From Vicinamibacterales bacterium (GTDB lineage Bacteria; Acidobacteriota; Vicinamibacteria; Vicinamibacterales; CAVVIG01): a stretch of 17,968 nucleotides of DNA. Where the stretch lies: NCBI GenBank assembly GCA_035315685.1, contig DATFXR010000157.1:1-17968 (forward strand), written 5' to 3'. Below, one piece after another: positions 2,785 through 16,380 of this stretch. Numbering within the stretch: position 1 is the first letter of the stretch; each line of letters starts with the position of its first letter. The notes below the pieces were generated by a model. The model saw nothing but the letters and a program-made list of their open reading frames with translations. It had not been told where the DNA came from and searched no databases. The translations under genes were made by a program, and so were the position numbers.

Positions 2785-3225
2785 ATGAGGCAGATGGTGC
2801 AGCTCGCGGTTGTGGTGCTGCCGATCCTCGGCACGGCGTCGTTCGCGGCACCGGCCGCGACGGACGCCGAGATTCGCGCGATCGAGAAGCAGTGGAACGA
2901 GGCGCGCGTGAAAGCCGATATCGCGACGCTCGATCGCCTGCTCGATCGCGACTGGACCGTGACCCACGGCGACGGCACGATCGACACCAAGGCGGAGTAC
3001 CTCGGCGATTTGCGGTCCGGCGCGCGGAAGTTCTTCGCGGACGTCACCGAGGATCACGTCGACGTGCGCGTCTACGGAGACACCGCCGTCGCGTCCGGCA
3101 CGAGCGATTCGAAAGTGGAATACAAGGGCAGGCCGTCCGGTGGTCCGCTCCGCTTCACGCGCGTTTACATCAAGCGCGACGGCCGCTGGCTGATGATCGT
3201 CACGCACGCCACGCGCAGGAATTAA
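2785..3225 (+). CDS. DUF4440 / SnoaL-like (NTF2-fold) domain protein, predicted secreted
   Basis: ATG 2785 is preceded by GAGGAG (2774-2779). The listed ORF 2533..3225 is an upstream extension with no RBS and Arg-rich junk. The translation MRQMVQLAVVVLPILGTASFAAPAATDAEIRAIEKQWNEARVKADIATLDRLL...VYIKRDGRWLMIVTHAT fits the DUF4440/NTF2-like pattern (IxAIEKQW...D..ALD.L..DDW....DG....K.EYL). The stop TAA 3223-3225 is contributed by the first heptamer of the downstream repeat element. Confidence 0.7.
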   Translation: MRQMVQLAVVVLPILGTASFAAPAATDAEIRAIEKQWNEARVKADIATLDRLLDRDWTVTHGDGTIDTKAEYLGDLRSGARKFFADVTEDHVDVRVYGDTAVASGTSDSKVEYKGRPSGGPLRFTRVYIKRDGRWLMIVTHATRRN

Positions 3226-3328
3226 GAATTGAGAATTAAGAATTGAGAATTCGTGCCACGCTGGCAAGAGGCGAAATGTTGCGGTCGTGATCACGAATTC
3301 TTAATTCCAAATTCATAATTCTTAATTG
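3220..3328. repeat. AT-rich palindromic element built of 7-bp units (AATTAAG/AATTGAG ... AATTCTT/AATTCCA), family 1 copy 1
   Basis: Left arm 3220-3255: AATTAAG AATTGAG AATTAAG AATTGAG AATTCGTG. Right arm 3292-3328: CACGAATTC TTAATTCC AAATTCA TAATTCT TAATTGC. The arms are about 85% reverse-complementary, with a perfect 9-bp GAATTCGTG/CACGAATTC base, around a 36-nt GC-rich spacer. Composition is under 25% GC in a ~68% GC background. It overlaps the last codon and stop of the upstream CDS. Confidence 0.85.
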
Positions 3329-3494
3329 CAGGGTTCGGCCGTGACGCCGTCCAGCGGGCGAACCACTCCCTGGTCGGCGATCGCGTGCAGAAAACGTCGC
3401 ACCGTGATGCAAGGATTGTGCGTCCAAACGTGGAGCCGACGCTATACTGGCGCCGCGAAACGCTCGTGTTTACCGCTGTTTCAAGGAGGTTCTC

Positions 3495-4289
3495 GTGCCC
3501 GACGTGAACTCGCACCCGCCCGGAACGTTTTCGTGGCCTGAGCTGGCGACGACCGATCAGAAAGCCGGCGTTGCGTACTACCGCGGGCTGTTCGGCTGGG
3601 ATGTCAAAGAGGAGCCGATGGGTCCGACCGAGGTCTACTCGATGTTCCAGATGCGCGGCCGCCCGGTCGCCGCGGCGTACACGATGCGGCCGGAAGAGAA
3701 ACAGGCCGGCGCCCCGCCTCACTGGAACTCGTACGTCACCGTCAACAACGTCGACGAAGTCGTGACCAAGGCGCAGGCGATCGGCGCGCGCGTGTTCGCG
3801 CCGCCGTTCGACGTGATGGACGCCGGACGGATGGCCGTCCTGCAGGATCCCACCGGCGCGGTGTTTCAAGTGTGGCAGGCGAAGAACCACGTCGGGGCGA
3901 TGATCCTCAACGAGCCCGGTGCGCTCTGCTGGACCGAATTGACGACCAGCGATCTGCGGGCGGCGGAAGGGTTCTACACGCAGCTGTTCCACTGGACCGC
4001 GAAGCGCAGCGATCCCGCGTCGGGCATGGAGTACACCGAGATGAGCAACAACGGGCAGCCGGGCGTCGGCATGATGCCCAAGCCGCCGAACATGCCGGCG
4101 CACATCCCGTCGTTCTGGATGCCGTACTTCATGGTCGCCAACGTCGACGCGAGCACCGACAAGGCGAAGCAGCTGGGCGGGAAGGCGATGGTTGGACCGC
4201 AGGACATCTCGAACGTCGGCCGCTTCTCGGTCGTCAGCGACCCGCAGGGCGCCGTCTTCGCGCTGTTCCAGCCCGCTCCGCGGCAGTAG
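3495..4289 (+). CDS. VOC-family protein with two tandem glyoxalase/bleomycin-resistance-like domains
   Basis: GTG 3495 is preceded by AAGGAGG (3483-3489). The 264-aa product has two repeated halves ([10 protein letters not shown]...GLFGW...PMGP..YSMF / [10 protein letters not shown]...QLFHW....G.EYTEM) characteristic of duplicated VOC/glyoxalase-fold modules. Confidence 0.75.
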
Positions 4290-4311
4290 CAGACCGCTGC
4301 CACATCATGTC

Positions 4312-4365
4312 GTAGTGTCCGGCTTCACCCGGACCTCAGCGAGGTCCGCGGAAGGCGGACACTAC
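4312..4365 (+). terminator. GC-rich stem-loop 23 nt after the VOC gene stop; outer 10-bp stem GTAGTGTCCG/CGGACACTAC enclosing inner hairpins GTCCGG-CTTCAC-CCGGAC and GGACC-TCAGCGA-GGTCC
   Basis: A perfect 10-bp inverted repeat at 4312-4321 / 4356-4365 with nested hairpins. There is no U-tract. The first 23 nt (GTAGTGTCCGGCTTCACCCGGAC) recur at 12871-12893. It could be a terminator or a conserved structured RNA upstream of msrA (start 4408). Confidence 0.35.
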
Positions 4366-4407
4366 GCGCGTGTGATTTCCTGTTTAATAAGAGGCGGGGT
4401 ACGCACG

Positions 4408-5058
4408 ATGTTCACGAAGAAACGGCTGACGATCCCGTCAGCCGCCGAGGCACTACCCGGACGCGCCGAGCGGATGACGGTTCCGGACGCGCATTTCGTC
4501 AACCACCATCGTCTGGCGCCGCCGTTTCCCGATGGTCTGCAGCGGGCGCTGTTCGGTATGGGCTGCTTCTGGGGCGCTGAGCGGAAGTTCTGGCAGCTTC
4601 GCGGTGTCTACAGCACCGCGGTGGGGTACGCGGGGGGCCACACGCCCAACGCGACCTATCGCGAGGTCTGCACGGGTATGACCGGGCACAACGAAGTCGT
4701 GCTCGTGGTCTTCGATCCGAAGGTTGTCAGCTACGAGCAGCTGCTGAAGACGTTCTGGGAGAATCACGACCCGACGCAGGGCATGCGGCAGGGCAACGAC
4801 ATCGGCACGCAGTATCGATCCGGCATCTACTATTTCGACGGGGCGCAGCAGCGTGCCGCGGAGCAGTCGCGCGACGCGTTCCAGAAGCAGTTGACAGCCG
4901 CCGGCTATGGAACGATCACGACCGAGATCCTGCCGGCACCAGAGTTCTATTACGCCGAGGATTACCACCAGCAGTACCTCGCCAAGGATCCCGACGGCTA
5001 CTGCGGACTCGGCGGTACAGGCGTCAGCTGTCCAATCGGCGTGGGTGTGACTGCCTGA
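4408..5058 (+). CDS. msrA: peptide-methionine (S)-S-oxide reductase MsrA
   Basis: ATG 4408 follows GAGGCGGGG. The translation has the GCFWG active-site motif and near-colinear similarity to E. coli MsrA along its length (SAAEALPGR...[45 protein letters not shown]...[30 protein letters not shown]...[19 protein letters not shown]). The listed ORF 4192..5058 is an unsupported upstream extension. Confidence 0.93.
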
Positions 5059-5082
5059 TCGGCGGTGCCGCCGCTGCGCGCT

Positions 5083-5197
5083 GCAATTAAGAATTAAAGA
5101 AGTAAGAATTAAGAATTCCTGATCAGGCTGTCGCACTGCCTGGCAGCGGAACAGCGTGACGCGCATTCTTAATTCTTAATTTGTAATTCTTAATTGC
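5083..5197. repeat. AT-rich palindromic 7-bp-unit element, family 1 copy 2 (GCAATTAAGAATT...AATTCTTAATTGC termini)
   Basis: Left arm 5083-5121: GC AATTAAG AATTAAA GAAGTAA GAATTAA GAATTCCTG. Right arm 5161-5197: GCGC ATTCTTA ATTCTTA ATTTGTA ATTCTTA ATTGC. The arms are reverse-complementary apart from a 1-nt indel and a few mismatches, around a 39-nt GC-rich spacer containing CTGCC-T-GGCAG. The terminal 13 nt match copy 1. It lies 25 nt after the msrA stop and ends 3 nt before the hrpB ATG. Confidence 0.85.
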
Positions 5198-5200
5198 CCG

Positions 5201-7570
5201 ATGCCGGTCCAAGCACTTCCAATCGACGGGTACATCGAACCAATCATCGCAGCAGTCCGCCGCTCGCGTGCGGTCGTAGTCACCGCCGCGCCGGGGGCTG
5301 GAAAAACCACGCGCGTTCCGCCGGCGCTGCTCGTTGACGGTCCGGTGATCCTCCTGCAGCCGCGGCGCGTCGCGGCGCGCGCGATCGCGGCGCGGGTTGC
5401 CGCTGAACGCGGCTGGACTCTCGGCCGCGAGGTCGGTTGGCAGGTGCGCTTCGAGCGCCGCTTCTCGGCCGAGACCGCGCTGCTCGTCGTCACCGAGGGG
5501 GTACTCACAGCGCGGCTGCAACACGATCCGCTGCTGTCGAAGTTCCGCACGGTCGTGCTCGACGAGTTTCACGAGCGAAGCGTGCACGCCGACGTGGCCC
5601 TTGCCCTCGCCCGTCAGGCCTGGCGCGCCCGTTCGACCGCTGCCGCTTCGTCCTCGGCGACGTCGACCGACGAGGACCTGCGCATCGTCGTCATGTCGGC
5701 GACGCTCGACGCGGATGCGGTGGCGTCGTTCCTCGGCGACTGCCCGATCGTCGCCGTGCCGGGCCGCACCTATCCTCTCGACGTCACCTACACGCCCGGT
5801 GTGCCGATCGGTGAAGCCGCCTCGAGTGCGCTGGCGGCGACGGGCGGGCAGGTGCTCTGCTTTCTCCCGGGCGCCGGGGAGATTCGCCGCGCGGCCGCCG
5901 ACATCGAGCCGCGCGTCGGAGCGGACGTCGAAGTAGTGCCGCTCCATGGATCGCTGGACGCCGACGCACAGGGCCTGGCGCTCCGTCCGTCATCTCGCCG
6001 CCGGATCGTCGTCGCCACGAACATCGCGGAAACGTCGCTGACGGTTCCGGGCGTCACCGCCGTCGTCGATACTGGTCTGCAGAAGATTGCGCGGTACGAC
6101 GCCGACCGCGGCATCGACAGTCTCGAGACCGAGCGTGTCACTGCAGATGCTGCCGATCAGCGCGCCGGCCGTGCCGGCCGCCTCGCACCCGGCATCGTGC
6201 GGCGGCTCTGGGATCGGCGCGATCGATTGCGGCCGCATCGCGAGCCGGACATCCGGCGAATCGATCTGGCCGGCACGGTGCTCGATGTGATTGCCTGGGG
6301 CGGCGATCCACGGACGCTCGACTGGTTCGAAGCGCCGCCGGCCGATGCGATCGCCGCTGCGCTGACGCTGCTCGGGCGGCTCGGTGTGATCGACGGACGC
6401 GGCCGGCTGACCGCGTTGGGCGAGCAGGTGCGGCGGATCCCGCTGCATCCACGACTCGCGTGCATGCTCGCCGCCGCCGGCGGCGGACCTCAGATGGCGC
6501 GGGCCTGTGCGCTTCTCTCCGAACGCCATCTGTTGCCGCCGCGCAGCGCATCTACCACATCCGATCTCCTGTCGGCGCTGGATCACTGGTCCGGGATGCC
6601 GCCGCATGTCCACCACGCGGCGGCGAGTATCCAGTCCGCGTTTCGGTCAGCCATCAGCCCTCAGCCCTCAGCCATTGACCGCGGCGAGGCGGTATTCCGC
6701 CGGGCCGTCCTGTCCGGATATCCCGACCGGGTCGCACAGCGACGCGCGCCGGGATCGCCGGAAGTGCTGCTCGCCTCCGGCACGGGCGCCACAATCGCCC
6801 GCGACAGCGGCGTCCATGACGGCGAGTTTCTCGTCGCGGTCGACGTCGCGCGACGGGCGGCGCCCGCCACGGCTCTGGTCCGCATCGCGAGCCGCGTCGA
6901 GCGCGAATGGCTCGCGCCGACCGCATCAGAGACCGTGCACCGTTTCGACGGATCGAGCGGCCGCGTGAGGGCGTTCGCCATCGAGCGCTATCTGGCGCTG
7001 GTTCTCGGCGAGCAGCCCGTCGCCGCCGACGTCGACGTTGCCGCACGGATGCTCGCTGACGCCTGGCTGGCGCGCGGACCTCGCGGCGCCGATGCGCAGT
7101 TGCTGCGCCGCCTGCGCTTCGCCGGACACGAGGCGGACGTTGCAGAATTGATCCGCACTGCCGCGTACGGTGCGCGATCGCTCGATGCGGTCACGCCTGG
7201 CGCTGCGCTCACGCCAGCCGTCCTGCGCGATCTCGACCGCGACGCGCCGGAGATGCTCGCGGTGCCCAGCGGCCGCAGCGCACGCCTCGAGTACAACGAG
7301 GATGGGACGGTGTCGGCGTCGGTGAAGCTCCAGGAACTGTTCGGTCTCGCCGACTCACCGCGAATCGGGCGCCGCCGCGAGCCTGTTGTCCTCGCACTGC
7401 TCGCGCCGAACGGCCGTCCCGTCCAGATCACGCGCGACCTGCGCAGCTTCTGGAACAACACGTATCCGGAAGTACGAAAGGAGCTGCGCGGCCGCTACCC
7501 GAAGCACCCGTGGCCCGAGGATCCGTGGAGCGCACAGCCGACGCATCGGACTGTGCGCCGGAAGCATTGA
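5201..7570 (+). CDS. hrpB: ATP-dependent RNA helicase HrpB (DEAH-box family)
   Basis: 789 aa. Walker A APGAGKTT, DEFHERS (DEAH-box variant), SATLD, FLPGAGEI, TNIAETSLTV.GV..VVD.G and QRAGRAGR are all present, followed by an HrpB-type C-terminal domain (...RYPKHPWPEDPW). The N-terminus is colinear with E. coli HrpB. Confidence 0.92.
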   Translation: MPVQALPIDGYIEPIIAAVRRSRAVVVTAAPGAGKTTRVPPALLVDGPVILLQPRRVAARAIAARVAAERGWTLGREVGWQVRFERRFSAETALLVVTEGVLTARLQHDPLLSKFRTVVLDEFHERSVHADVALALARQAWRARSTAAASSSATSTDEDLRIVVMSATLDADAVASFLGDCPIVAVPGRTYPLDVTYTPGVPIGEAASSALAATGGQVLCFLPGAGEIRRAAADIEPRVGADVEVVPLHGSLDADAQGLALRPSSRRRIVVATNIAETSLTVPGVTAVVDTGLQKIARYDADRGIDSLETERVTADAADQRAGRAGRLAPGIVRRLWDRRDRLRPHREPDIRRIDLAGTVLDVIAWGGDPRTLDWFEAPPADAIAAALTLLGRLGVIDGRGRLTALGEQVRRIPLHPRLACMLAAAGGGPQMARACALLSERHLLPPRSASTTSDLLSALDHWSGMPPHVHHAAASIQSAFRSAISPQPSAIDRGEAVFRRAVLSGYPDRVAQRRAPGSPEVLLASGTGATIARDSGVHDGEFLVAVDVARRAAPATALVRIASRVEREWLAPTASETVHRFDGSSGRVRAFAIERYLALVLGEQPVAADVDVAARMLADAWLARGPRGADAQLLRRLRFAGHEADVAELIRTAAYGARSLDAVTPGAALTPAVLRDLDRDAPEMLAVPSGRSARLEYNEDGTVSASVKLQELFGLADSPRIGRRREPVVLALLAPNGRPVQITRDLRSFWNNTYPEVRKELRGRYPKHPWPEDPWSAQPTHRTVRRKH
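6648..6675 (+). repeat. intragenic run of four tandem heptamers CAGCCAT CAGCCCT CAGCCCT CAGCCAT inside hrpB (encodes SAISPQPSAI)
   Basis: Direct 7-bp tandem repeats read in the sequence. The unit is the reverse complement of the ATGGCTG unit used by the intergenic elements at 11904-11940 and 16280-16380. It lies in the variable linker between the helicase core and the HrpB C-terminal domain, and the frame is preserved. Confidence 0.7.
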
Positions 7571-7574
7571 CTGG

Positions 7575-7602: not shown

Positions 7603-7613
7603 CGGCCGCTCGC

Positions 7614-8366
7614 CTAAAGGCGTCGCGCTACGTCAGGAGCATCGAGCGCTCCAAGCAGCGGCTGACCGGCGCGGGCAGCGTAGAAACCGAACGCGGCCGA
7701 GGCCAGGACGAGCGCGATCGAGAGATTGCCGGGCAGGGCCGCCCAGCTCGCGGCATGCGGCAGGATCGGTGCGACCGTCACGATGTTGTCCACGATGAGC
7801 ATCACCGCCGTCACCAGCAGGCCGAACCTGAAGATCGCCAGGGTGATGATGCCGATCGCCGTGAGCTGGCCGACCACGTAGAGCGACAACTCCTGACCGA
7901 ACGGGATGTTGCTCGTCACCGCAGCGGTGACGACGGTCATCCCGACCGCGACCGCGATCCACGTCCGCCTCACGATCAGGCGCAGGCCGACGAAGGTCAT
8001 CGTGATGAGCAGCGCGGTCTGAACGCTGCTGTAGAACTGGCCGGCCCAGGCCAGGATGAGCGAACCTGCGCCGCTCAGCACGCGCACGTCGCCATCCAGA
8101 AACGGCAGCGCGGGCGCGCGTCCGATCTGGTACGGCATCGCACCGCGGAACCCGTCGTTGACGATCAGCGCGGCTCCGAGCGCGACGCCGATCAGGATCT
8201 CGCGGCCGATTCGCGGGTCGCGGACGTGTCCGGCAAACAGCCGCGTCCATCCGAGCAGGCCGTCGGGCCAGAACCGCCGGCCATATGGCTCGAGCGCGAC
8301 GTAGAGCACCCACAACAGCGCGACTTGAAACAGCATGTTGCCGCAGACGCGGAAGAAGCTGTTCAC
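7614..8366 (-). CDS. polytopic membrane protein, stand-alone paralog of the C-terminal transmembrane domain of the upstream Ser/Thr kinase
   Basis: 250 aa from GTG 8366 (ATG alternative at 8336), hydrophobic throughout. It aligns clearly to kinase residues ~640-882: LYVALEPYGRRFWPDGLLGWTRLFAGHVRDPRIGREILIGVALG vs IYAALEPYGRRFWPEMLLGWSRLLSGRIRDPRVGRDVLLGVTFG, and C-termini FGFYAARAGQPLLG vs FGFYASRAGEPLFG. The frame upstream of 8366 hits a stop at 8424 and shows no kinase homology, so this is a separate gene, not a frameshifted continuation. Confidence 0.75.
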   Translation of the reverse strand: MNSFFRVCGNMLFQVALLWVLYVALEPYGRRFWPDGLLGWTRLFAGHVRDPRIGREILIGVALGAALIVNDGFRGAMPYQIGRAPALPFLDGDVRVLSGAGSLILAWAGQFYSSVQTALLITMTFVGLRLIVRRTWIAVAVGMTVVTAAVTSNIPFGQELSLYVVGQLTAIGIITLAIFRFGLLVTAVMLIVDNIVTVAPILPHAASWAALPGNLSIALVLASAAFGFYAARAGQPLLGALDAPDVARRL

Positions 8367-8475
8367 CTCGGCCGCCGGGCGCGGGCGTGACGGCCGGCGG
8401 CCCGACCGTGACGTCGAATTCGGTCACGACATCTACCTCGGCCCCCTGACGCTCGGCTACAGCCTTCGCGCTCCG

Positions 8476-11091
8476 TTATGGCGGCGCGAATTTGCCGAAC
8501 AGCGGCTCGCCGGCGCGTGAGGCGTAGAAGCCGAACATGGCCAGCAGGACGATGGCGGCAATGGTCCAGTTCGACGCCGTCGCCGACCAGTGAGACACCT
8601 GCAGCGTGAACGGGACCGCCTGGCACAGACCGACCACGATCCTCGCAACCGCCGCTGCCAGCAATCCGAACCGTATCAGCACGAACGTGAATGCCGCGGC
8701 GATGATCAGCTCATAGGTCACCTCAACGGGCAGCGCTGCAGTGAAGGTCAATGTCGACCACCAATAAATGATGATCACCATCGCGATCGGGACTGCCAGC
8801 GACGCACGGCGCGTGAGCAGACGGAGCACGACCAGCAGCAGCACGCTACCCAGCGCGACCTGCAGCTCGCGCAGGATGATGGTCGCCCAGTCGGAGATCG
8901 TCTCTGCCGCGCCGAAGAGAGTGGTCGCGTCACTGCCCATCCGCGGCACCGTGCCCGGGTACCCGAGCGCCTGCGGCAGCAGCCGGCGCGCGATCTCCAG
9001 GCCAAACCAGACGACGCCGAACGTCACGCCGAGCAGCACGTCGCGGCCGACGCGCGGGTCGCGGATGCGCCCGGACAACAGTCGGCTCCAGCCCAGCAGC
9101 ATCTCCGGCCAGAATCGACGGCCGTACGGCTCGAGCGCCGCGTAGATCGTCCACAGAATCACGCCGAGCGCCACGGCATCGCTGAGGACCGCGCTCAGCG
9201 ACAATGCCTCCAGCCGCAAGTCGGGCAGGTGATGGTTGCCGGTCACCCACGACACCAGCTCCGTGCAGACGGCGAAGATGGCGACGCGCATCGCGCCGCG
9301 CCGGTCGGCACGGCCGTGCCGCACGTTGTAGCGTGCCAGCACGACGGCGCCGCCGAGCAGCGCGACGAGTACGGTCAGGAACACCGCATACCCGATCCGG
9401 TCTTCGAGTGCCCGCTGCACGGCCTGCATCCGCGTCGGCACGGTCCACGGACCGATCAGCAGGAACGACACGGCGCGGCCGCGATACGCCGCGGCCTCGA
9501 CCCGCACCCGCAAGTCGGCGCGGCCCGGCAGCGCGCCTTCCCACGCCCCGCGCGCGTCGGCGTAGTCGCGCGGCGTCCACTGGGTCTCGACCGCCGTGAA
9601 GTCGCGCATCGGCAGATCCGCGAGCTCGAACAGTTGCGGCCACGGCGGCGGTATCGCCGCCGCGGCTCCGCCGTCTTCGAACTGGCGAGGCACCGACGTG
9701 AACCCGATCAGCCGCCCGTGCATGTCAATCGTCACGGTATGCATGTCGGTGTCCGCCTGCGGCGGATCGAGCGGCGTCACGTGCAGCGCAAGCTGTCGCG
9801 GCGCGAGCGTGTGTGGGCTGGTGCGATACCAGAAGATGAATCCCGGCGGCCGATCGCGCCCGAGCACGTCCCAGCGGTTCGGGCTCAGATCCGTTCTCGC
9901 GATCCACACGATGTACGGCGCATACGGCCCGAGGCCGTGCGCCGTATCGCCGCGCGGCTCGTTGTAGCCGAGCGCGCTGAGGATCTGCTCGGCCCGATCG
10001 TCGAGGACCGCGGGCGGCTTGTCGAGCGGCAGCAGCCGCGACAGCGTCGTCCGCGTCGCGAATCCGGCGCAGAGCAGCATCGCGATCGTCACGAAGAGGA
10101 GCGCCGACAATCCCTTCGTGACTGGCCACGCATCGGTCTCGCCGGCCGCGGCCACCATGTCGGGCGACGGCGTTTCGCCGGCGGCCAGCGCCGCGGCGAG
10201 TGGATCGCCACCGGGCAGCGCGGCCGCGACCGTCAGTACCGACGCCGGCCGCTCGTCCGGATCGCGCGCGAGGCAGCGGAGGATGACGCGCTCCACCGCC
10301 GGATCGAGATCGCGCACGATCGCCGACGGCGTCGTGATGGTGCCGGTGTCATGCAGCTGTCTCAATTCGCCGAGGGTCTTCGCGTCGTAGGTCCGGCGGC
10401 CGGTGACGATCTCGAACAGAATCAACCCGAGCGCGTAGAGGTCGCTCTTGATCGACGCCGGTTTGCCGGCGAGCAGCTCCGGCGCCATGTACTGCGGCGT
10501 GCCTGCAACGTCGACGCCGATGTCGTTCGCCGCCGTCGCGATGCCGAAATCGGTGATGCGGACGTTGCCGTCGCCGTCGATCATCACGTTCGCCGGTTTG
10601 AGATCGCGATGGATGACGCCGCGTTCGTGCGCCGCGGCGATCCCGGCGCAGAGTTGCCGCGCGACGTCGATCGCCTTGTCCTGGGGGAAGCGGCCGATGC
10701 GGCGGAGCAGCGACGCGAGATCTTCGCCGTCCACGTATTCCATCGTCAGGAACCGCCGCCCGTCGGCGTCGCCGAGGTCGTAGAGACGGCAGACGTTCTT
10801 GTGCGACACTTGGCGCGCGATGCGCAGCTCGTTGTGGAACTGCGCGAGCCGCACGGGATCAGCGGCGACACCTTCGGGGAGGAACTTGAGCGCGACCGGC
10901 TGGTCGAGGGTGAGGTCGTCGGCGCGGTAGACCTCGCCCATGCCGCCGCGGCCGAGGAGCGCGACAAGGCGATAGCGCGCGGCGATAATCGATCCCGGGG
11001 CGAACCGGCTCGTTTTTGGCGGCGGTGCCTGCGGCGCCGTCCGCACCATTGACGGCTCGAGCGTGAGATCGTCCTCAGGGGACCGCGGCAT
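8476..11091 (-). CDS. Hanks-type serine/threonine protein kinase fused to a periplasmic segment and a large C-terminal multi-TM domain
   Basis: The kinase subdomains are readable: LGRGGMGEVY (Gly loop), ALK, HRDLKPANV (catalytic loop), DFG, APE. A TM helix (LSALLFVTIAMLLCAGFA) follows, then a ~230-aa non-hydrophobic segment, then ~7 predicted TM helices. The start is uncertain, with no obvious SD at GTG 11124 (longest), ATG 11091 or ATG 11049. The stop at 8476 is firm. Confidence 0.88.
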   Translation of the reverse strand: MPRSPEDDLTLEPSMVRTAPQAPPPKTSRFAPGSIIAARYRLVALLGRGGMGEVYRADDLTLDQPVALKFLPEGVAADPVRLAQFHNELRIARQVSHKNVCRLYDLGDADGRRFLTMEYVDGEDLASLLRRIGRFPQDKAIDVARQLCAGIAAAHERGVIHRDLKPANVMIDGDGNVRITDFGIATAANDIGVDVAGTPQYMAPELLAGKPASIKSDLYALGLILFEIVTGRRTYDAKTLGELRQLHDTGTITTPSAIVRDLDPAVERVILRCLARDPDERPASVLTVAAALPGGDPLAAALAAGETPSPDMVAAAGETDAWPVTKGLSALLFVTIAMLLCAGFATRTTLSRLLPLDKPPAVLDDRAEQILSALGYNEPRGDTAHGLGPYAPYIVWIARTDLSPNRWDVLGRDRPPGFIFWYRTSPHTLAPRQLALHVTPLDPPQADTDMHTVTIDMHGRLIGFTSVPRQFEDGGAAAAIPPPWPQLFELADLPMRDFTAVETQWTPRDYADARGAWEGALPGRADLRVRVEAAAYRGRAVSFLLIGPWTVPTRMQAVQRALEDRIGYAVFLTVLVALLGGAVVLARYNVRHGRADRRGAMRVAIFAVCTELVSWVTGNHHLPDLRLEALSLSAVLSDAVALGVILWTIYAALEPYGRRFWPEMLLGWSRLLSGRIRDPRVGRDVLLGVTFGVVWFGLEIARRLLPQALGYPGTVPRMGSDATTLFGAAETISDWATIILRELQVALGSVLLLVVLRLLTRRASLAVPIAMVIIIYWWSTLTFTAALPVEVTYELIIAAAFTFVLIRFGLLAAAVARIVVGLCQAVPFTLQVSHWSATASNWTIAAIVLLAMFGFYASRAGEPLFGKFAPP

Positions 11092-11117
11092 GCGACGAAT
11101 TCTACTGGAGGAGAGAA

Positions 11118-11762
11118 ATGACACGGACAGTCATGGCAACATGCGGCGCGGCGCTGTTGCTGAGTGCAGCGCTCATCGCGCAGGGCGGCCGACCGGCGAG
11201 TCCCGCCGGGTCGTCAGCCACGCAGGTCGGCGGCAAGTACGACACCAGCGGCGCCGAACCTGTCTACAGGGGCGGCAAATGGATTGAAATCACCTACGGC
11301 CGTCCGATCAAGCGCGGCCGCGACATCTTCGGTGGCACTGGCGACAACTACGGCAAGACGGCCAATCCTGACGCACCGGTCTGGCGAGCGGGCGCGAACG
11401 TGTCGACCCAGCTCAAGACCGAAGTGCCGCTGGTGATCAACGGCAAGACGGTCGCGCCCGGTACCTACACGATGTTCATCGATCTCAAGCCGAGCAACTG
11501 GACGCTGATCATCTCCAACTGGAAGGCGGCCACGACGTTCAATCAGAACAACGACGCCAGCAAGACCGGCGAAGTCTTCGGCGCCTACGGCTATTCGCCG
11601 GAAAAGGACGTGGTCCGCGCCGTGATGAAGACGTCGACGCTGCCGTTCTCGGTCGATCAGCTCACGTGGAACTTCACGGACATGAGCGATGCCGGCGGCA
11701 ACATCACGATCATGTGGGACAAGATGACCGCCTCCGTACCGTTCCGCGTCGGCGGCTCGTAG
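11118..11762 (+). CDS. DUF2911-like secreted protein
   Basis: ATG 11118 is preceded by GGAGGAG (11105-11111). The N-terminal signal-like segment is MTRTVMATCGAALLLSAALIAQG. Motifs WRAGANVST, GKTVAPGTYTMF, WTLIISNW and GAYGYSPEKDVVRA match my recollection of the DUF2911 family. Confidence 0.7.
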   Translation: MTRTVMATCGAALLLSAALIAQGGRPASPAGSSATQVGGKYDTSGAEPVYRGGKWIEITYGRPIKRGRDIFGGTGDNYGKTANPDAPVWRAGANVSTQLKTEVPLVINGKTVAPGTYTMFIDLKPSNWTLIISNWKAATTFNQNNDASKTGEVFGAYGYSPEKDVVRAVMKTSTLPFSVDQLTWNFTDMSDAGGNITIMWDKMTASVPFRVGGS

Positions 11763-11815
11763 AACCGATGGGACTGATGGGCCCATAGGGTGGCTGGGGC
11801 TCGCCGAACCTTTCG

Positions 11816-11902
11816 ATGGTTCGAGACTTCACGCACATTCTGCGGCTGTTACGGCGCGCGCCAGGGTTCAGCGCCGTGGCCGTCATCGTTCTCGCGCTCG
11901 GT
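11816..11902 (+). pseudogene. remnant encoding only the N-terminal 29 aa of an ADOP-type (Acidobacterial duplicated orphan permease; FtsX/MacB-like) ABC permease
   Basis: The translation MVRDFTHILRLLRRAPGFSAVAVIVLALG matches the highly stereotyped ADOP N-terminus (..DLRYALRxLRKxPGFTAVAVLTLALGIGANTA..). Homology stops exactly where the heptamer repeat GATGGCT GATGGCT... begins at 11903. The frame then continues as repeat-derived junk to 12079. Confidence 0.55.
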
Positions 11903-11903
11903 C

Positions 11904-11940
11904 GATGGCTGATGGCTGATGGCATATGGTTAATGGTCAT
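11904..11940. repeat. tandem heptamer array GATGGCT GATGGCT GATGGCA TATGGTT AATGGTC, separating the ADOP remnant from the CRTAC1 fragment
   Basis: It shares an identical 19-mer ATGGCTGATGGCTGATGGC with the left arm of the element at 16280-16380. It contains the TAA (11931-11933) that closes the upstream side of the CRTAC1 reading frame. A degenerate ATGG-rich stretch (GATGGGACTGATGGGCCCATAGGGTGGCTGGGGC, 11767-11800) lies upstream of the ADOP remnant. Confidence 0.75.
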
Positions 11941-12071
11941 TCGTCGCCAACCAGAACGGCGACACCAACGGTCTGTTCCGGAACGACGGTGGCCATTTCG
12001 TCGACGTCGCGGGCGAGTGGGGTGTCGAGGCGCCGAGGCACTCGGCCGAGTTCGGCGGCGTCGGCCCCGCG

Positions 12072-12794
12072 GTGGCTGACTTCGATGGTGACGGCCTCCT
12101 CGATCTGTTCGTCGCCAACTATGGGCCGAGCGCGATGTACCGGAACGACCACGGCCGCCGGTTCGTCGACGTGACCCGTGACGTCGGCCTCTTCTTCGAG
12201 CAGCACGCGACCACGCCGTCATGGGGCGACTACGACAACGACGGCCGGCCGGACCTCTACGTGGCCGGCTTTCTGGTCAACGTCACGCACTATCCCGATC
12301 ATCTGTTCCACAACCTGCGCGCGGCGGGAGGTGGCGCCCGGTTCGAGGACGTGCTGCCGAAGCTCGTCGATCAGCACGACGGCAGTCACGGTGTGCAGTG
12401 GGTGGATTTCGACGGGGATGGCGCGCTCGACCTGGCGCTGACCAACAACGATCCGGCCGGCGGCCACTATCTGTTCAGGAATCTGCTTCCGGCGGCGCGC
12501 GCACGCCAGTCCCTCGCTGTCGACGTCGTCGACGGCCACGGCCACCACACGAAGGCGGGTGCCGAAGTACGTGTCTACGCGGCCGGCACACGCCGGCAGA
12601 TCTCGTCCGGTCTCGTTGACACCGGCGGCGGCTACTGCTCGCAGAACGTGATGCCGGTCCACGTCGCGACGGCCGATGCCGCGCGCGTGGACGTCGAGGT
12701 GACGTCGATGAGCGGGAGGGGACGTCGGACAACGCGCGTCGCCGGCGTCACCGTCGGCCAGGCGTCGCGCCCGCTCGTCGTGAAGGTGCCGTGA
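12072..12794 (+). CDS. CRTAC1-family (FG-GAP/VCBS repeats + ASPIC/UnbV domain) protein, C-terminal fragment; probably a 5'-truncated remnant
   Basis: From GTG 12072 it encodes DFDGDGLLDLFVANYG...RFVDVT, DYDNDGRPDLYVAG, VDFDGDGALDLALTNN (FG-GAP/VCBS units), then the UnbV/ASPIC-like C-terminus (VRVYAAG....SGLVDTGGGYCSQN). The same frame is open back to 11934 and still encodes a repeat unit (FVANQNGDTNGLFRNDGGHFVDVAGEWGV) with no start codon. There is no signal peptide. Full-length family members are typically much longer than this 240-aa fragment. Confidence 0.6.
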   Translation: MADFDGDGLLDLFVANYGPSAMYRNDHGRRFVDVTRDVGLFFEQHATTPSWGDYDNDGRPDLYVAGFLVNVTHYPDHLFHNLRAAGGGARFEDVLPKLVDQHDGSHGVQWVDFDGDGALDLALTNNDPAGGHYLFRNLLPAARARQSLAVDVVDGHGHHTKAGAEVRVYAAGTRRQISSGLVDTGGGYCSQNVMPVHVATADAARVDVEVTSMSGRGRRTTRVAGVTVGQASRPLVVKVP

Positions 12795-12859
12795 CTGGGG
12801 ACCGGGGACTGGGGCTGGGGCTGGGGCTGGGGTTGGGAGCTGGAGGCTGGGACTAGCTG
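12795..12859. repeat. G-rich tandem array CTGGGGA CCGGGGA (CTGGGG)x4 TTGGGAG CTGGAGG CTGGGAC; left arm of an imperfect inverted pair whose right arm is 12957-12986
   Basis: It starts at the base after the CRTAC1 stop. GGAGCTGGAGGCTGGGAC (12834-12851) is approximately complementary to GGCCCCCAGCTTCCAGCGC (12957-12975). Confidence 0.6.
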
Positions 12860-12870
12860 TCGTTACACCG

Positions 12871-12893
12871 GTAGTGTCCGGCTTGAGCCGGAC
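12871..12893 (+). other. second copy of hairpin motif GTAGTGTCCGGCTT-GAG-CCGGAC (perfect 8-bp stem GTCCGGCT/AGCCGGAC)
   Basis: 21 of 23 nt identical to 4312-4334 (GTAGTGTCCGGCTTCACCCGGAC). It lies in the spacer between the CTGGGG/CCCCAG arms. Confidence 0.5.
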
Positions 12894-12913
12894 GGTCGGC
12901 GAAGCTGCGGTTC

Positions 12914-12953
12914 GAAAATCCCGCGGTCTCTGCGTGTTTCCGCGGTTTGCGTT
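12914..12953. terminator. candidate bidirectional intrinsic terminator: GAAAATC - CCGCGG-N13-CCGCGG - TTTGCGTT between convergent genes
   Basis: A 6-bp GC stem (CCGCGG 12921-12926 / 12940-12945) is flanked by an A-run upstream and a T-run downstream. A U-rich tail therefore follows the hairpin on either transcript (UUUGCGUU on +, GAUUUUC on -). Confidence 0.4.
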
Positions 12954-12956
12954 CCC

Positions 12957-12986
12957 GGCCCCCAGCTTCCAGCGCCCAGCCCCGCG
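12957..12986. repeat. C-rich right arm GGCCCCCAGCTTCCAGCGCCCAGCCCCGCG, complementary to the CTGGGG array
   Basis: Reverse complement CGCGGGGCTGGGCGCTGGAAGCTGGGGGCC resembles GGGGCTGGGG...GGAGCTGGAGGCTGGG in the left arm. It ends 4 nt before the stop of the sigma-54 activator CDS (12991). Confidence 0.5.
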
Positions 12987-12990
12987 CCGA

Positions 12991-14319
12991 TCACCCGCGA
13001 TACCCCAATCTTCGCTTCATCGCGCGGACGGTGCCCCCGGGATCTCTCGACGCGCCGCGGCCGACGGTACCGAGCAGCCTTGCTGCCTGCGCGGCGTTGC
13101 CGCCGCTCTCCTCGAGCGCCACCGCCAGCGCGTCCCGCTCGAGCGCGCGCACTTCATCGCGGAGGTTGAGCCGTCCCGCCCGGAGCCGCTGCCGCAGCCG
13201 CGCCTGATCGACGACATAATCGCCGTGCCGCGACGTTCGCAGGATTCGCACCGGCAGATCCGACGGCAGCAGCTCGCGCCCCGCGCGCTTGTACACCATC
13301 GTCTCGAACATCACGTTGCGGAGCTCGCGGATGTTTCCGGGCCACGGATAGGCGGCCAGTGCGCGCAGTGCATCGGCGCGGATGGTCTCGACCGCCGGAC
13401 GCTGATGCTCCTGCGCAAATCGATCGAGAAAGTGCTGCGCCAGCCTCGGCAGATCCTCGATCCGCTCCCGCAGCGGGGCGAGATGGATGCGGACGATCGC
13501 CAGCCGCTCGTACAGGTCGGCGCCGAACCGCCCCGAGGCGACCAGCGGTTCCAGATCGCGGTTGGTCGCCGCCAGGATCCGGAAATCCACTTCGTGCCAC
13601 GCGTTCTCGCCGAGCCGGCTGACTACGCGATCCTCGAGGACGCGGAGGAGCTTCACCTGGGTTTCGAGCGGTGTGTCGTCGATCTCGTCGAGGAACACGG
13701 AGCCGCCCGCGGCGGCCATCAACTGGCCGTCGTAGGCCTGGACCGCGCCCGAGAACGCGCCGCGCGCATACCCGAACAGCTCCGCCTCCATCAGCTCGTT
13801 CGGAATGGCGGCACAGTTGATTGGCACGAACCGCCGATCGCGCCGCGGCGACCACGCGTGGATCTGGCGCGCGGCGACCTCCTTGCCGGTCCCGGTCTCG
13901 CCGGTCAGCAGCACCGCCATTGCGGTCTGCGCGACGCGGGCGGCCTGACGTAAGACCGCGCGTGACGCCGCGCTCACCTGCACGATGTGATCGGCCGCCG
14001 GAGGAACTGGCTCCGGCGCCAGCATTTCCTCGAGCCTGCTGACAATCGCGTCGGCCGCGTTCGTGCTGCCGAGCGCGACCACGTCGTATGCGCCGCGGAG
14101 CACGGCGTCGGCGGCACGAGCCGGCGGTACCGGCGCGGCCGAAATCCACAGCCACCGCCCGCGCTCCACGGCCGGCGCCGGCACCTTCACGCTGGTTGCC
14201 GTCGCGACCACGAGCGGCAGGTCCTCCGGGTCCTCCCGGTCAACGTGCATGCCGGCGGCGCGCAGGCGCGCCGCGACGTCACCGGACGGCGGTTTTCCAA
14301 CCCAGGCAATGCTGCGCAT
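12991..14319 (-). CDS. sigma-54-dependent transcriptional activator (NtrC/Fis family) with a degenerate receiver-like N-domain
   Basis: AAA+ sigma-54 interaction domain: Walker A GETGTGKE, the GAFTGA-equivalent loop ELFGYARGAFSGA, Walker B FLDEIDD, and the arginine-finger region NIRELRNV. The C-terminal Fis-type HTH is GGNAAQAARLLGTVGRG. The N-terminal ~110 aa lack the DD/D/K phospho-acceptor constellation. Confidence 0.85.
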   Translation of the reverse strand: MRSIAWVGKPPSGDVAARLRAAGMHVDREDPEDLPLVVATATSVKVPAPAVERGRWLWISAAPVPPARAADAVLRGAYDVVALGSTNAADAIVSRLEEMLAPEPVPPAADHIVQVSAASRAVLRQAARVAQTAMAVLLTGETGTGKEVAARQIHAWSPRRDRRFVPINCAAIPNELMEAELFGYARGAFSGAVQAYDGQLMAAAGGSVFLDEIDDTPLETQVKLLRVLEDRVVSRLGENAWHEVDFRILAATNRDLEPLVASGRFGADLYERLAIVRIHLAPLRERIEDLPRLAQHFLDRFAQEHQRPAVETIRADALRALAAYPWPGNIRELRNVMFETMVYKRAGRELLPSDLPVRILRTSRHGDYVVDQARLRQRLRAGRLNLRDEVRALERDALAVALEESGGNAAQAARLLGTVGRGASRDPGGTVRAMKRRLGYRG

Positions 14320-14398
14320 CGCCGGTATTAAAGCACGTCATGGCCGTCAATCAATTACTGATCTCTCACGAACCAGCGCCTAAACACGGCCGAAATGC

Positions 14399-14416
14399 CC
14401 GGCTCGGCAGATGCAC
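14399..14416 (+). promoter_or_regulatory. candidate sigma-54 (-24/-12) promoter cGGCtCG-N4-aTGCA for the flotillin-like gene
   Basis: GG at 14401-14402 and GC at 14413-14414 have the required 10-nt spacing. It matches TGGCACG-N4-TTGCW at about 9 of 12 positions. It lies ~55 nt upstream of ATG 14470 and next to a divergently encoded sigma-54 activator. It is not a perfect match. Confidence 0.3.
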
Positions 14417-14433
14417 CGATACACCGTATCGGT
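14413..14433. promoter_or_regulatory. perfect dyad CACCGATAC-ACC-GTATCGGTG overlapping the candidate -12 element
   Basis: 9-bp inverted repeat arms with a 3-bp spacer, read directly. It is 37 nt upstream of the flotillin-like start. It could be an operator, or a UAS for the adjacent activator. Confidence 0.4.
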
Positions 14434-14469
14434 GGACGCAAGCCAGTCCGCCTGGAAAGGACAGACGTC

Positions 14470-16278
14470 ATGCTCTCGCTGGTCTGGGAACACCTCTGGT
14501 TCTTCGTCGTGGCGGCCCCGCTCATCGTCATCGGGCTCGCCGTCGTCGCGTCCAGCGTCCGCATCGTCGGTGCGAACGAGTCGGGCCTGGTCGTCAAGCG
14601 GTTCGGGCCGGCGCTCGCCTCGGGCCGCATCGTCGCGCTCAACGGCGAAGCGGGGTATCAGGCGCGCATGCTGGCGCCGGGATGGCATTTCTTCCTGTGG
14701 CGTGTGCGCTATCGCGTGTACAAGGTGCCGACCGTTGTCGTGCGCCCTGGTGAGATCGCGCTCGTCGTGGCGGCTGACGGGGCCGCGATGCCGAGCGAGC
14801 GGGTGCTCGGCAAGGCGGTCGTCTGCAACAACTTCCAGGATGCGGAGGCGTTCCTCACCAACGGCGGCGAGCGCGGCCGGCAAATCATGGTACTGACCGC
14901 TGGTACCTACCGCATCAACCCGGCGCTGTTCGACGTGATCACGACGGCGTCGGCCACGAAAACCGGCCTGACGCCGGCCGACCTGCGCGTCTACCAGGTG
15001 CAGACGGACCGCGTCGGCATCGTGACGATGCTCGACGGCCGGCCGATTCCGGCGGGTGATCTTGCCGGCCCCGTGGTACCGGGGCACGAGAGCTTCCAGC
15101 GCGGCCAGGCGTTCATCGATGCCGGCGGCTGCCGTGGTCTGCAGGAGGAAGTCCTGCTGTCCGGCTCGTGGAACCTGAACCCGTGGCTGGCGCAGGTGGA
15201 GCAGGTGCCGCTCGTCGAAGTGCCGATCGGCTACGTCGGCGTCGTCGTCAGCTACGTCGGCCGCGAGCATCTCGACGTCTCGGGCGAATCGTTCACGCAC
15301 GGCGACCTCGTGGAGCGCGGGCGCAAAGGCGTGTGGGTCGACCCGCTGCTGCCCGGCAAGCATCCGCTGAACACGAAAGTGATGAAGGTGGAGCTCGTCC
15401 CGACGACGAACATCGTGCTGAACTGGGCGCAGCGGACCGAGGCGCACCACTACGACGAACGGCTGTCGTCGATCATCGTGCGTTCGAAGGACGGCTTCTC
15501 GTTCAGCCTCGACGTCTCGCAGATCATCCACATCGGCATGCGCAACGCGCCGCGGGTGATCTCACGCGTCGGCTCGATGCAGAACCTCGTCGATCACGTG
15601 CTGCAGCCGACCGTCGGCAACTACTTCCGCAACTCGGCGCAGCAGGTGACGGTGCTCGAGTTCCTCTCGGCGCGCTCGGAGCGGCAGCGCAACGCGTTCG
15701 AGAACATCCGGACGGCGATCGAGGCGTACGACGTCGAGTGCATCGACACGCTGGTCGGCGACATCGCGCCGCCCGCGGACCTGATGAAGACGCAGACCGA
15801 CCGCAAAATCGCGGAGGAGCTCGAGCGCACCTACGAGGTCCAGCGCGAGGCGCAGATCAAGCGTCAGGCGCTCGAGCGTGAGACCGCGGTCGCGAACCTG
15901 CAGGGTGAAGTGGTGCGATCGGAGCAGATGGTGAAAGTCGCGCAGCAGGACGCGCTGGCAGCGGCCGAACGCGCCCGCGGCGAAGGCAGCGCGCTGGAGC
16001 TCCGCGCCCAGGGTCAGGCGGCGTCGGTCCGGCTGGCGGGTGATGCGGAAGCGGCGGCGCTGCGCGCGGTCGGCGCGGCGAAGGCGGAAGCGTACAAGCT
16101 CGGAGTCGCGGCGGTCGGCGAAAGCGGCTATACGGCGATGCAGATCGCGACAATCCTTGGCGAGCACCACGTGAAGGTCGTACCGGAGATCGCGGTGACT
16201 GGTGATGGCGCGGGTGCAGGAATGGCGAATGTGATGCTCGCGAAACTCGTCGCTGCTGCGGGTGAGAAAAAGAACTGA
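14470..16278 (+). CDS. flotillin-like SPFH/band-7 domain protein (YqiK-type)
   Basis: ATG 14470 follows AAAGGA. The N-terminal membrane anchor is LWFFVVAAPLIVIGLAVVASSV. The ~600-aa product ends in an Ala/Glu-rich coiled-coil region (EAQIKRQALERETAVANLQ...AERARGEGSALELRAQGQAA...), which is the flotillin signature. I prefer the 14470 start over the longer 14395 start because of the RBS and the TM position. Confidence 0.8.
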   Translation: MLSLVWEHLWFFVVAAPLIVIGLAVVASSVRIVGANESGLVVKRFGPALASGRIVALNGEAGYQARMLAPGWHFFLWRVRYRVYKVPTVVVRPGEIALVVAADGAAMPSERVLGKAVVCNNFQDAEAFLTNGGERGRQIMVLTAGTYRINPALFDVITTASATKTGLTPADLRVYQVQTDRVGIVTMLDGRPIPAGDLAGPVVPGHESFQRGQAFIDAGGCRGLQEEVLLSGSWNLNPWLAQVEQVPLVEVPIGYVGVVVSYVGREHLDVSGESFTHGDLVERGRKGVWVDPLLPGKHPLNTKVMKVELVPTTNIVLNWAQRTEAHHYDERLSSIIVRSKDGFSFSLDVSQIIHIGMRNAPRVISRVGSMQNLVDHVLQPTVGNYFRNSAQQVTVLEFLSARSERQRNAFENIRTAIEAYDVECIDTLVGDIAPPADLMKTQTDRKIAEELERTYEVQREAQIKRQALERETAVANLQGEVVRSEQMVKVAQQDALAAAERARGEGSALELRAQGQAASVRLAGDAEAAALRAVGAAKAEAYKLGVAAVGESGYTAMQIATILGEHHVKVVPEIAVTGDGAGAGMANVMLAKLVAAAGEKKN

Positions 16279-16279
16279 G

Positions 16280-16380
16280 ACATGGCTGATGGCTGATGGC
16301 TCATGGCAATGGCTGATGGTTGAAGCGTTCAGCCATCGACCCTAGCCATTAGCCATTAGCCATTAGCCATTAGCCATGTC
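16280..16380. repeat. palindromic element of 7-bp units: (ATGGCTG)-type left arm / (AGCCATT)x4 right arm, family 2
   Basis: Left arm 16280-16320: ACATGGCT GATGGCT GATGGCT CATGGCA ATGGCT GATGG. Right arm 16328-16380: TTCAGCCATCGACCCT AGCCATT AGCCATT AGCCATT AGCCATT AGCCATG TC. It fills exactly the gap between convergent stops (16278 and 16385). The mismatches between arms are systematically G (left) opposite T (right), which pair as G-U in the + strand RNA but as C/A in the - strand RNA. Confidence 0.85.

Follow-up and report, generated by a model that had tools for sequence, protein, structure and literature searches.

Some bacteria carry an excess of tandem heptamer repeats, a fact on record since 1990 and 2007. 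The short tandemly repeated repetitive (STRR) heptanucleotides of heterocystous cyanobacteria were reportedly described by Mazel et al. in 1990, and the unit of STRR1 is said to be CCCCAGT. Here we analyze a stretch of 17,968 nucleotides from a Vicinamibacterales bacterium (Acidobacteriota; GenBank assembly GCA_035315685.1, contig DATFXR010000157.1), called the window throughout, in which heptanucleotide arrays are arranged as inverted pairs that fold into long hairpins, and in which a further array lies inside the hrpB gene. Heptamer repeats of this class are already described, including cases in cyanobacteria and Xanthomonas, and the window elements are a further case, from the Vicinamibacterales. 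On balance, they are probably heptanucleotide simple sequence repeat (SSR) hairpins of the same class as the cyanobacterial STRR and the inverted heptamers of Xanthomonas, built by a replication-error process.

When reviewing earlier work, Rehm et al. (2015; PMC4692102) state that the SSRs of bacteria show an over-representation of heptameric repeats (Mrazek 2007). They mention the three heptanucleotide repeats found in Calothrix, and they quote a hypothesis in which slippage is governed by how long a stretch of DNA the active site of the polymerase holds. Rehm et al. themselves reported 186 and 183 GGGAATC arrays in two Xanthomonas genomes, with 70-75 convergent pairs able to form stem-loops. 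A zone of 50 bp around start or stop codons was enriched in these arrays, some of which overlapped the stop; 7-11% were intragenic, and both length and sequence varied between related species (PMC4692102). Arrays of TAACTGA were described in Beggiatoaceae, Cyanobacteria and Bacteroidetes (MacGregor 2015; PMC4679880), and a preprint of 2022 speculates on a protein that binds heptamer arrays in Nostoc. A sequence-only reading of the window, made before our analysis, had been aware of no described system of this kind; the two published studies (PMC4692102, PMC4679880) show this statement to be wrong.

Arrays were called with Tandem Repeats Finder (TRF) and with a separate, stricter detector, and dinucleotide shuffles and second-order Markov simulations served as controls. 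In the window, TRF found eight period-7 arrays of 2.9-6.1 copies (3219-3251, 3296-3327, 5085-5117, 5165-5195, 6647-6675, 11904-11923, 16282-16323 and 16343-16377) and one period-6 array. The strict detector called four period-7 arrays and one of period 6, and none at periods 4-5 or 8-12. No period-7 array arose in 200 dinucleotide shuffles of the window. The unit types present are AATTAAG, ATGGCTG/TAGCCAT, CTGGGG(A) and TCAGCCM. Inverted array pairs folding into long hairpins account for four of the six array loci (3219-3327, 5083-5197, 12795-12988 and 16279-16380). These four elements, here called E1, E2, the CTGGGG element and E4, occupy their intergenic spacers almost entirely.

E1 starts within the last codons and the stop (AGG AAT TAA) of a DUF4440 gene, the terminal codons of which continue the phase of the array (AGGAATT equals six of seven positions of the unit). 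Its left arm (3219..3255, 4.7 copies of GAATTAA/GAATTGA) is followed by a GC-rich, partly self-pairing spacer (3256..3291) and by the right arm (3292..3327, 4.6 copies of AATTCTT). The paired arms (3220-3255 and 3292-3327) have 36 nt each, are 86% complementary and enclose 36 nt; the predicted fold has -50.2 kcal/mol (z -7.6 versus shuffles), and that of the other strand -42.8 kcal/mol. E2 begins 25 nt past the msrA stop codon with 4.6 copies of AATTAAG (5083..5117), continues with a spacer (5118..5164), and ends with 4.4 copies of ATTCTTA (5165..5197), 3 nt short of the hrpB ATG (-51.8 kcal/mol, z -7.4 versus shuffles). In E4, 6.1 copies of ATGGCTG (16279..16323) start 1 nt after the TGA of the SPFH gene, the centre (16324..16342) holds an inner mini-hairpin and a bulge, and 5.0 perfect copies of TAGCCAT (16343..16380) end 4 nt before the stop codon of a convergent amidohydrolase gene. 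Its arms (16279-16307 and 16352-16380) are 90% complementary, and the plus strand folds at -74.5 kcal/mol (z -11), the minus strand at -61.8 kcal/mol. On the plus strand, the mismatches of E1 and E4 are compatible with G:U pairing.

The CTGGGG element is less regular. Its left arm (12795..12852) directly follows the TGA of a truncated FG-GAP gene and is mostly of period 6, with unit lengths of 7, 7, 6, 6, 6, 6, 7 and 7. Its right arm (12953..12988; CCCCCAG, CTTCCAG, CGCCCAG, CCCCGCG), which was revealed by a search with 6-nt seeds together with the relatives, has period 7 and ends 2 nt before the stop codon of a sigma-54 activator gene on the minus strand. The arms are 72-74% complementary, the spacer measures 100-109 nt, and the whole element folds with z -3.4. 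Of the loci for which a single plan of inverted heptamer arms had been proposed, E1, E2 and E4 are clear inverted pairs. The CTGGGG element has a longer spacer than the proposed 7-40 nt, and the array at 11904 is a lone arm. The CTGGGG element is heptameric in its right arm, but mixed in its left arm.

In order to place the window among its relatives, we used comparison loci (L-numbers), mostly from metagenome assemblies. A scan of species-representative genomes for ATGGCTRATGGCTRATGGCT gave more than 120 stretches among the matches listed, but this sample is biased by the way of choosing, and 80 metagenome loci picked solely for encoding an HrpB relative (723 kb) were therefore fetched. These contain 61 period-7 arrays (20 with an inverted partner), 11 period-8 arrays (5 with a partner), 3 of period 6 and 4 of period 9; under a second-order Markov model of the same 723 kb, 0.1 arrays are expected at each of periods 7 and 8. 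TRF agrees on the dominance of period 7, both in these loci and in 120 loci of many phyla from the ATGGCTRATGGCTRATGGCT matches listed. In the flanks of the ATGGCTRATGGCTRATGGCT matches listed, arrays outside the seed family were of period 7 in 135/336, of period 8 in 18 and of period 6 in 0, and about a quarter of the period-7 arrays had an inverted partner. The excess of a shared 7-bp period over chance, claimed from the window alone, is thus found in the relatives, where periods 6, 8 and 9 are far from equally common.

Array density differs strongly between lineages. Loci whose HrpB shares at least 62% identity with that of the window have 14-19 arrays per 100 kb. The value is 0.6 per 100 kb in the band of 54.5-62% identity, and about 18 per 100 kb at 54.5% identity or less, where all arrays come from L197-L199. 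Neighbouring lineages therefore differ more than 20-fold. The 7-bp period is a property of the lineage, beyond chance, and a lineage-specific propensity points to some feature of replication or repair in these lineages rather than to a universal property of DNA. The ATGGCTRATGGCTRATGGCT matches listed include Acidobacteriota, Gemmatimonadota, Cyanobacteria, Bacteroidota, Planctomycetota, Chloroflexota, Poribacteria, Pseudomonadota and others, and the ATGGCTR unit occurs in at least 15 phyla among the matches listed, a phyletic spread to be taken as qualitative only.

One might suspect chance or an assembly artefact, as the window and the majority of the comparison loci come from metagenome assemblies and arrays often lie at contig ends. 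We give this explanation practically no credence, and the results refute it: shuffling of the window yielded no period-7 array, the relatives have 61 against an expected 0.1, and orthologous elements recur across independent assemblies from different samples. Such repeats are also present in the genomes of the isolates Sphingobacterium allocomposti, Vibrio splendidus, Microseira wollei and Kamptonema, and are documented in finished Xanthomonas and Nostoc genomes (PMC4692102).

The conserved period of 7 holds as a strong preference, but not as a fixed rule, since a minority of period-8 arrays and at least one period-9 hairpin are found at the same kinds of site. The latter lies in the msrA-hrpB spacer of L123 (L123:3372-3470), where a hairpin with arms of 9-nt period (ACGGAGGAC) folds with -59.8 kcal/mol (z -9.2). 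At the SPFH junction of L204 (L204:8150-8215), units of 7 and 8 nt alternate (TGGGGAC and TAGGGGAC) with a 15-nt super-period. This alternation may show a route from period-7 to period-8 arrays.

Elements at orthologous junctions keep their layout and change their units. Downstream of the SPFH gene, ATGGCTG/TAGCCAT in the window corresponds to GATGGCT/CAGCCAT with different unit counts in L201 (95% protein identity), to GGGGCTN/NAGCCCC in L206, L202 and L203 (91-92%), to the GGGGACT type, T(A)GGGGAC/GTCCCC, in L204 and L205 (88%), and to AGGGCTT/AAGCCCT interspersed with GCCATCA in L208 (85%). In L207, heptamers are absent from this junction and a non-periodic palindrome is found instead. The five perfect TAGCCAT copies of the window match just the outermost unit of the L201 arm, which indicates recent expansion within the arm. 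At the junction of the FG-GAP and sigma-54 activator genes, CTGGGG(A)/CCCCCAG in the window stands against ATGGCTR/CAGCCRT in L208. As the rotations CTGATGG, CTGGGGG and CTGGGGA are 1-3 substitutions from one another, the ATGGCTG and CTGGGG types are variants of one drifting family. The sequence-only reading had found no similarity between the families, which is correct inside the window but misleading, because relatives exchange these two types at orthologous sites.

The msrA-hrpB spacer shows the same behaviour at the level of single substitutions. The window and L121 share the AATTAAG arms down to the same irregular third unit, with TAAGAAT pairing with ATTCTTA, versus TTGGAAT with ATTCCAA in L122 and L130, where the unit is AATTCCA. 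This change amounts to two compensatory substitutions in every unit of both arms. For the E1 site, a comparison of orthologues was precluded, as no DUF4440 homologue was present in any fetched comparison locus.

Retention of a hairpin at one junction while its sequence changes makes a selected function a live alternative. The elements would then be bidirectional transcript-end terminators, mRNA stabilisers or insulators, or arrays bound by a protein or ribonucleoprotein (RNP) in a 7-bp register, and selection would keep both the periodicity and the complementarity of the arms. Consistent with this, the elements fill spacers and abut stop codons (E1 overlaps the TAA, E4 lies 1 nt after the TGA, the CTGGGG element directly after its TGA), and they are kept at the same junction at 85-95% protein identity despite the change of unit, a form of covariation. 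The G:U-compatible mismatches favour the plus strand (-50.2 versus -42.8 kcal/mol in E1, -74.5 versus -61.8 kcal/mol in E4), and published work on Nostoc and Beggiatoaceae speculates on regulatory roles and a binding protein. We nevertheless regard this explanation as unlikely. At a junction that holds an element in sister genomes, L196 has none and nothing visible in its place, and L207 has only its non-periodic palindrome. A terminator and promoter scan of the window picked none of the heptamer elements, with counts at the level of shuffles, and no U-tract follows any element. A search of the window against Rfam gave no family match at the gathering score, only miRNA hairpin models below threshold. 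An equally strong hairpin (-58 kcal/mol) lies within the intact hrpB open reading frame (ORF) of L127, where a terminator would do harm. A reader protein or RNP with a fixed 7-bp register, as had been proposed, is further disfavoured by the many unrelated units that coexist in one genome and by the arrays of periods 8 and 9, which do not suit a binder of a single sequence or register. Any role of the elements as RNA 3'-end hairpins or insulators would be secondary, and they probably lack a dedicated function.

Presence and absence of elements can be compared in L196-L199, which share about 90% DNA identity. The spacer of L196 measures just 0-35 nt at five junctions where its relatives L197-L199 carry hairpins. 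Hairpins at the same site differ in unit and even in period, for example the octamer GTTGCTGA in L198 and L199 versus the heptamer TGAACGA in L197. The empty junction contains the unit in full (7/7) in three of the six mapped cases, against a background of about 4.5% per case; TGAACGA, GCATTCT and ATGAACG are examples. At the L197 site, the TGAACGA match sits in the conserved N-terminal codons of the downstream gene (a run of xNDxII), and this favours either seeding from local sequence or targeting by microhomology.

Such polymorphism at identical junctions of related genomes would also be expected from small non-autonomous mobile elements, similar to MITEs (miniature inverted-repeat transposable elements) or to paired repetitive extragenic palindromes (REPINs), that are copied by a trans-acting transposase or a hairpin-specific enzyme with a preference for gene ends. 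The heptamer periodicity would then belong to the element family and not to the replication machinery of the host. Size and layout are REPIN-like, with a spacer between two arms that have about 35 nt each and a total of about 110 bp, in intergenic position. One and the same unit is found at unlinked sites within a genome, ATGGCTR spans at least 15 phyla, and the spacers of E1 (read on its reverse strand) and E2 are weakly similar (z 2.9, p about 0.005, from two copies only); the L122 spacer resembles that of E1 (z 3.8). On either side of E1 lies a perfect copy of a 5-bp direct repeat, GCAGG (3215..3219 and 3328..3332, plus strand), that resembles a target-site duplication; no consistent flanking repeat is seen at E2 and E4. 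Several observations make this origin rather unlikely in our view. A conserved motif such as GTAG is missing from the ends of the arms, and the unit drifts continuously at an orthologous site with no wholesale replacement. At some empty sites the unit is host coding sequence, as with TGAACGA in the xNDxII codon run. Periods 7, 8 and 9 are found at one site in sister genomes, and the 18-kb window contains no transposase.

Arrays are not confined to spacers. The tandem CAGCCAT-type array noted inside hrpB is real and in frame (6647..6675, plus strand): 4.1 copies of TCAGCCA/TCAGCCC encode SAISPQPSAI, and the ORF of the window is intact across the array, with the N- and C-terminal Pfam domains in one frame. 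Intact ORFs are likewise found in 80/81 HrpB orthologues. Within the clade of at least 62% HrpB identity, in-frame heptamer arrays occupy three gapped loops (window residues 397-399, 475-494 and about 553) that align poorly to E. coli HrpB (6EUD), and they encode 7-residue repeats of the SAIRNPQ type. The SAISPQPSAI array is orthologous to the TCCGCAA (SAIRNPQ) arrays of relatives, and the units form a series from TCCGCAA over TCAGCAA (L156) and TCAGCCA (window) to TCAGCCC (L157), with the same substitution in each unit. In L127, a complete hairpin of six ATTGCGG and four TCCGCAA copies, to which the array of the window is orthologous, lies inside the hrpB ORF (-58 kcal/mol, z -7.8). Units found within ORFs have no stop codon in any frame, and stop-free units together with intact ORFs indicate a mutational supply that is filtered by selection. 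A rule that every unit carries stop codons in three frames was considered and rejected, as CTGGGGA, GGGAATC and AATCCGC have none.

Two further observations concern the same protein. In L141 (4841-4950) and L142 (9279-9379), HrpB loop 1, which elsewhere holds heptamer arrays, contains a 9-nt repeat (GGTCGGGTG) encoding runs of the GGSGGS type, and the two genomes, 99.4% identical, differ by one unit of it. A search with six copies of SAIRNPQ matched just spurious ORFs of 31-74 aa (P0001-P0102) over intergenic AATCCGC-type arrays, deposited from many phyla (for example Bordetella hinzii, Chitinophaga niastensis and Desulfobulbaceae). The Joint Genome Institute (JGI) often labels such ORFs "major type 1 subunit fimbrin (pilin)", apparently an annotation artefact.

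The array at 11904 is an orphan single arm (11904..11940, plus strand) with three copies of GATGGCT followed by decaying units. No inverted partner was found for it: the fold has z +0.7, and inverted repeats nearby are at chance level. It is preceded by 29 codons from the N-terminus of an ADOP/MacB-type permease (11816-11903; MVRDFTHILRLLRRAPGFSAVAVIVLALG) and followed by the C-terminal part of a 5'-truncated FG-GAP/ASPIC gene. The corresponding region of relatives contains DUF2911, an ADOP/MacB permease and an FG-GAP gene of full length (about 494 aa); the counterparts of 11816-12794 are full-length in L202, L204 and L207 and truncated in a different way in L208. The permease remnant and the truncated gene on either side indicate that the array marks a deletion or rearrangement junction, and the region 11816-12794 of the window is a rearrangement hot spot.

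This junction array, together with the more than 20-fold density gap, the repeated independent events at the same junctions and the narrow choice of periods (7, then 8), would also fit an origin from a dedicated, lineage-restricted activity rather than from passive polymerase errors. A specialised polymerase, a primase, a repair pathway or a hairpin-specific enzyme would write a local sequence of 7-8 nt into a tandem array at a junction or break, fold it back, and insert it in frame into loops. We consider this quite doubtful.

Under the origin that we prefer, errors of replication would build and reshape each element. Slipped-strand mispairing would expand a seed of 7 nt, or more rarely of 8 nt, into tandem copies. 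A quasipalindrome-type template switch within the same molecule would make the inverted arm and keep correcting it, so that new unit variants would reach all units of both arms; the Ripley model, studied in E. coli by the Lovett laboratory, reportedly has such a switch copy a change from one arm to the other. Some elements may seed copies elsewhere via microhomology. Elements would persist where they are tolerated, that is, in short spacers between gene ends, often touching a stop or start codon, and in surface loops of proteins if the unit is stop-free and the length of the insert keeps the frame. Slippage within arms and switching between arms would both act in lineages that are permissive for such errors, and selection would remove all other inserts. 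A common biogenesis by slippage or template switching, one of the two possibilities raised in the sequence-only reading, is the best fit to the concerted change of units in both arms and to the empty sites, some of which contain the unit verbatim.

Several points weigh against this origin. Complementarity of the arms could be kept by selection for a functional hairpin and not by template switching, and the proposed process does not account for a period of 7. Unit number or sequence varies in the intergenic elements, which differ among relatives at 85-95% protein identity and between genomes of about 90% DNA identity. A test for a variable number of tandem repeats (VNTR) in the in-frame hrpB arrays showed no length difference between genomes that are 96-99% identical, and slippage is therefore not fast everywhere. 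The signal for a local seed is based on just six cases, and a unit match in an empty site could be the scar of a precise excision. Recurrence of one unit at unlinked sites is not predicted by purely local seeding; examples are AATTAAG with two sites in the window, AACGATG with two in L197, and AATCCGC, which is found in three loops of hrpB as well as elsewhere. The AATTAAG arms have 14-30% GC in a genome of 67% GC, which makes a local origin of E2 unlikely. Finally, the GCAGG repeat around E1 and the weak likeness of the E1 and E2 spacers look like transposition. Replication errors, mobile elements and selected hairpins are not mutually exclusive.

Classical repetitive extragenic palindromic (REP) sequences with a GTAG head (GTAGTGTCCGGCTTNAGCCGGAC) are also present, at 4311-4366 and 12858-12895 in the window and at L123:2056, L127:255, L130:8249, L148:1678 and L157:1688. 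They are conserved across the clade and distinct from the heptamer elements, in the arms of which the GTAG/CGTC head was not found. The copy at 12858..12895, a GTAG-type hairpin (GGTAGTGTCCGGCTTGAGCCGGAC), lies nested inside the CTGGGG element's spacer, and the loop of the AATTAAG element in L121 holds a related double REP. A further family of heptamer hairpins, CGCAAAG/CTTTGCG with spacers of 110-150 nt, is found beside the stop codon of the sigma-54 activator gene in L201 (60-330) and L206 (620-790); a one-arm remnant of it (GGTCTCTGCGTGTTTCCGCGGTTTGCGTT) lies at about 12925-12950 in the window.

The window, with 67% GC, encodes an Acidobacteria-specific VWA domain in keeping with its origin (TIGR03436; 251-1552), a formamidase (1739-2770, plus strand), the DUF4440 protein (to 3225, plus, stop codon TAA at 3223-3225), a KbpA-like protein (3495-4289, plus), MsrA (to 5058, plus), HrpB (5201-7570, plus), an ORF with no annotation (7633-8427), a Ser/Thr kinase (8476-11124, minus), DUF2911 (11118-11762, plus), the truncated FG-GAP/ASPIC protein (to 12794, plus), the sigma-54 activator (12991-14319, minus), SPFH (14395-16278, plus) and, convergent with it, the amidohydrolase (16385-17893, minus). 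An arginine-rich ORF of 270 aa on the minus strand (3291-4103) was rejected as a convergent gene, as it is a spurious antisense frame of the KbpA-like gene and its "homologues" in tblastn are antisense matches. With the KbpA-like ORF as its true neighbour, E1 lies between co-directional genes. The ORF at 7633-8427 contains a near-perfect 21-nt palindrome with a 1-nt spacer (CGGGATGTTGCTCGTCACCGC/GCGGTGACGACGGTCATCCCG; 7902-7944).

Together with its relatives from soil metagenomes, this locus forms an unusually clean comparative series, in which one can ask whether local sequence gives rise to the elements, whether particular genes of repair or replication co-vary with them, and whether they matter for transcript ends. 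The series also includes stop-free units inserted in frame as 7-residue peptide repeats, and even whole hairpins, within a helicase that looks essential. In practical terms, the arrays break assemblies, create spurious small ORFs and mark rearrangement junctions.

Among known systems, quasipalindrome template-switch mutagenesis, as it is commonly recounted, copies from arm to arm in a way that fits the compensatory changes seen here, but it is said to be a mechanism of point-mutation hotspots and not a generator of periodic arrays. The STRR resemble our elements in having several heptanucleotide units per genome, in tandem and in non-coding DNA, and STRR1, with its reported unit, is the reverse complement of the ACTGGGG unit seen in the window, L204 and L106. 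Unlike the paired hairpins described here, they are reported as direct arrays used for fingerprinting in low-GC cyanobacteria, with no known analysis of turnover at orthologous sites. REP and REPIN sequences are likewise intergenic hairpins of about 100 bp with two inverted arms and a spacer, often between convergent genes; their arms, however, are conserved palindromes of 20-40 bp with a GTAG/CGTC head and no 7-bp periodicity, whereas the heptamer arms are headless and drift.

In the Mrazek (2007) survey, to the extent that it is summarised in PMC4692102, period 7 is conspicuous in some genomes when periods 4-11 are compared, as it is here; that summary stays at the survey level, and hairpin architecture, compensatory evolution of the arms and lineage-restricted density lie outside what it covers. 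The TAACTGA repeats (PMC4679880) are similar in that heptamer arrays, there of 2-43 copies, are patchy across phyla, lie near start codons and occasionally occur in ORFs, but they are nearly all direct (1 indirect among 170 sets), have a single dominant unit and were proposed as binding sites of a translation regulator. The closest counterparts are the GGGAATC repeats of Xanthomonas and the GGGGA(C/T)T repeats of Nostoc (PMC4692102), which share with our elements the tandem heptamers (there typically about 4 units), the intergenic position, the convergent pairs, the proximity to start and stop codons, an intragenic minority and variation among related species; CTGGGGA of the window is a rotation of the Nostoc-type GGGGACT. 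Those units are G-rich and capable of forming a quadruplex, whereas AATTAAG and ATGGCTG have no G-tracts and cannot form one, the CTGGGG array being the only G-rich array in the window. Beyond the repeats of Rehm et al. (2015; PMC4692102), the acidobacterial elements offer several unit types that coexist and interconvert, in-frame hairpins in one protein, and empty sites for comparison.

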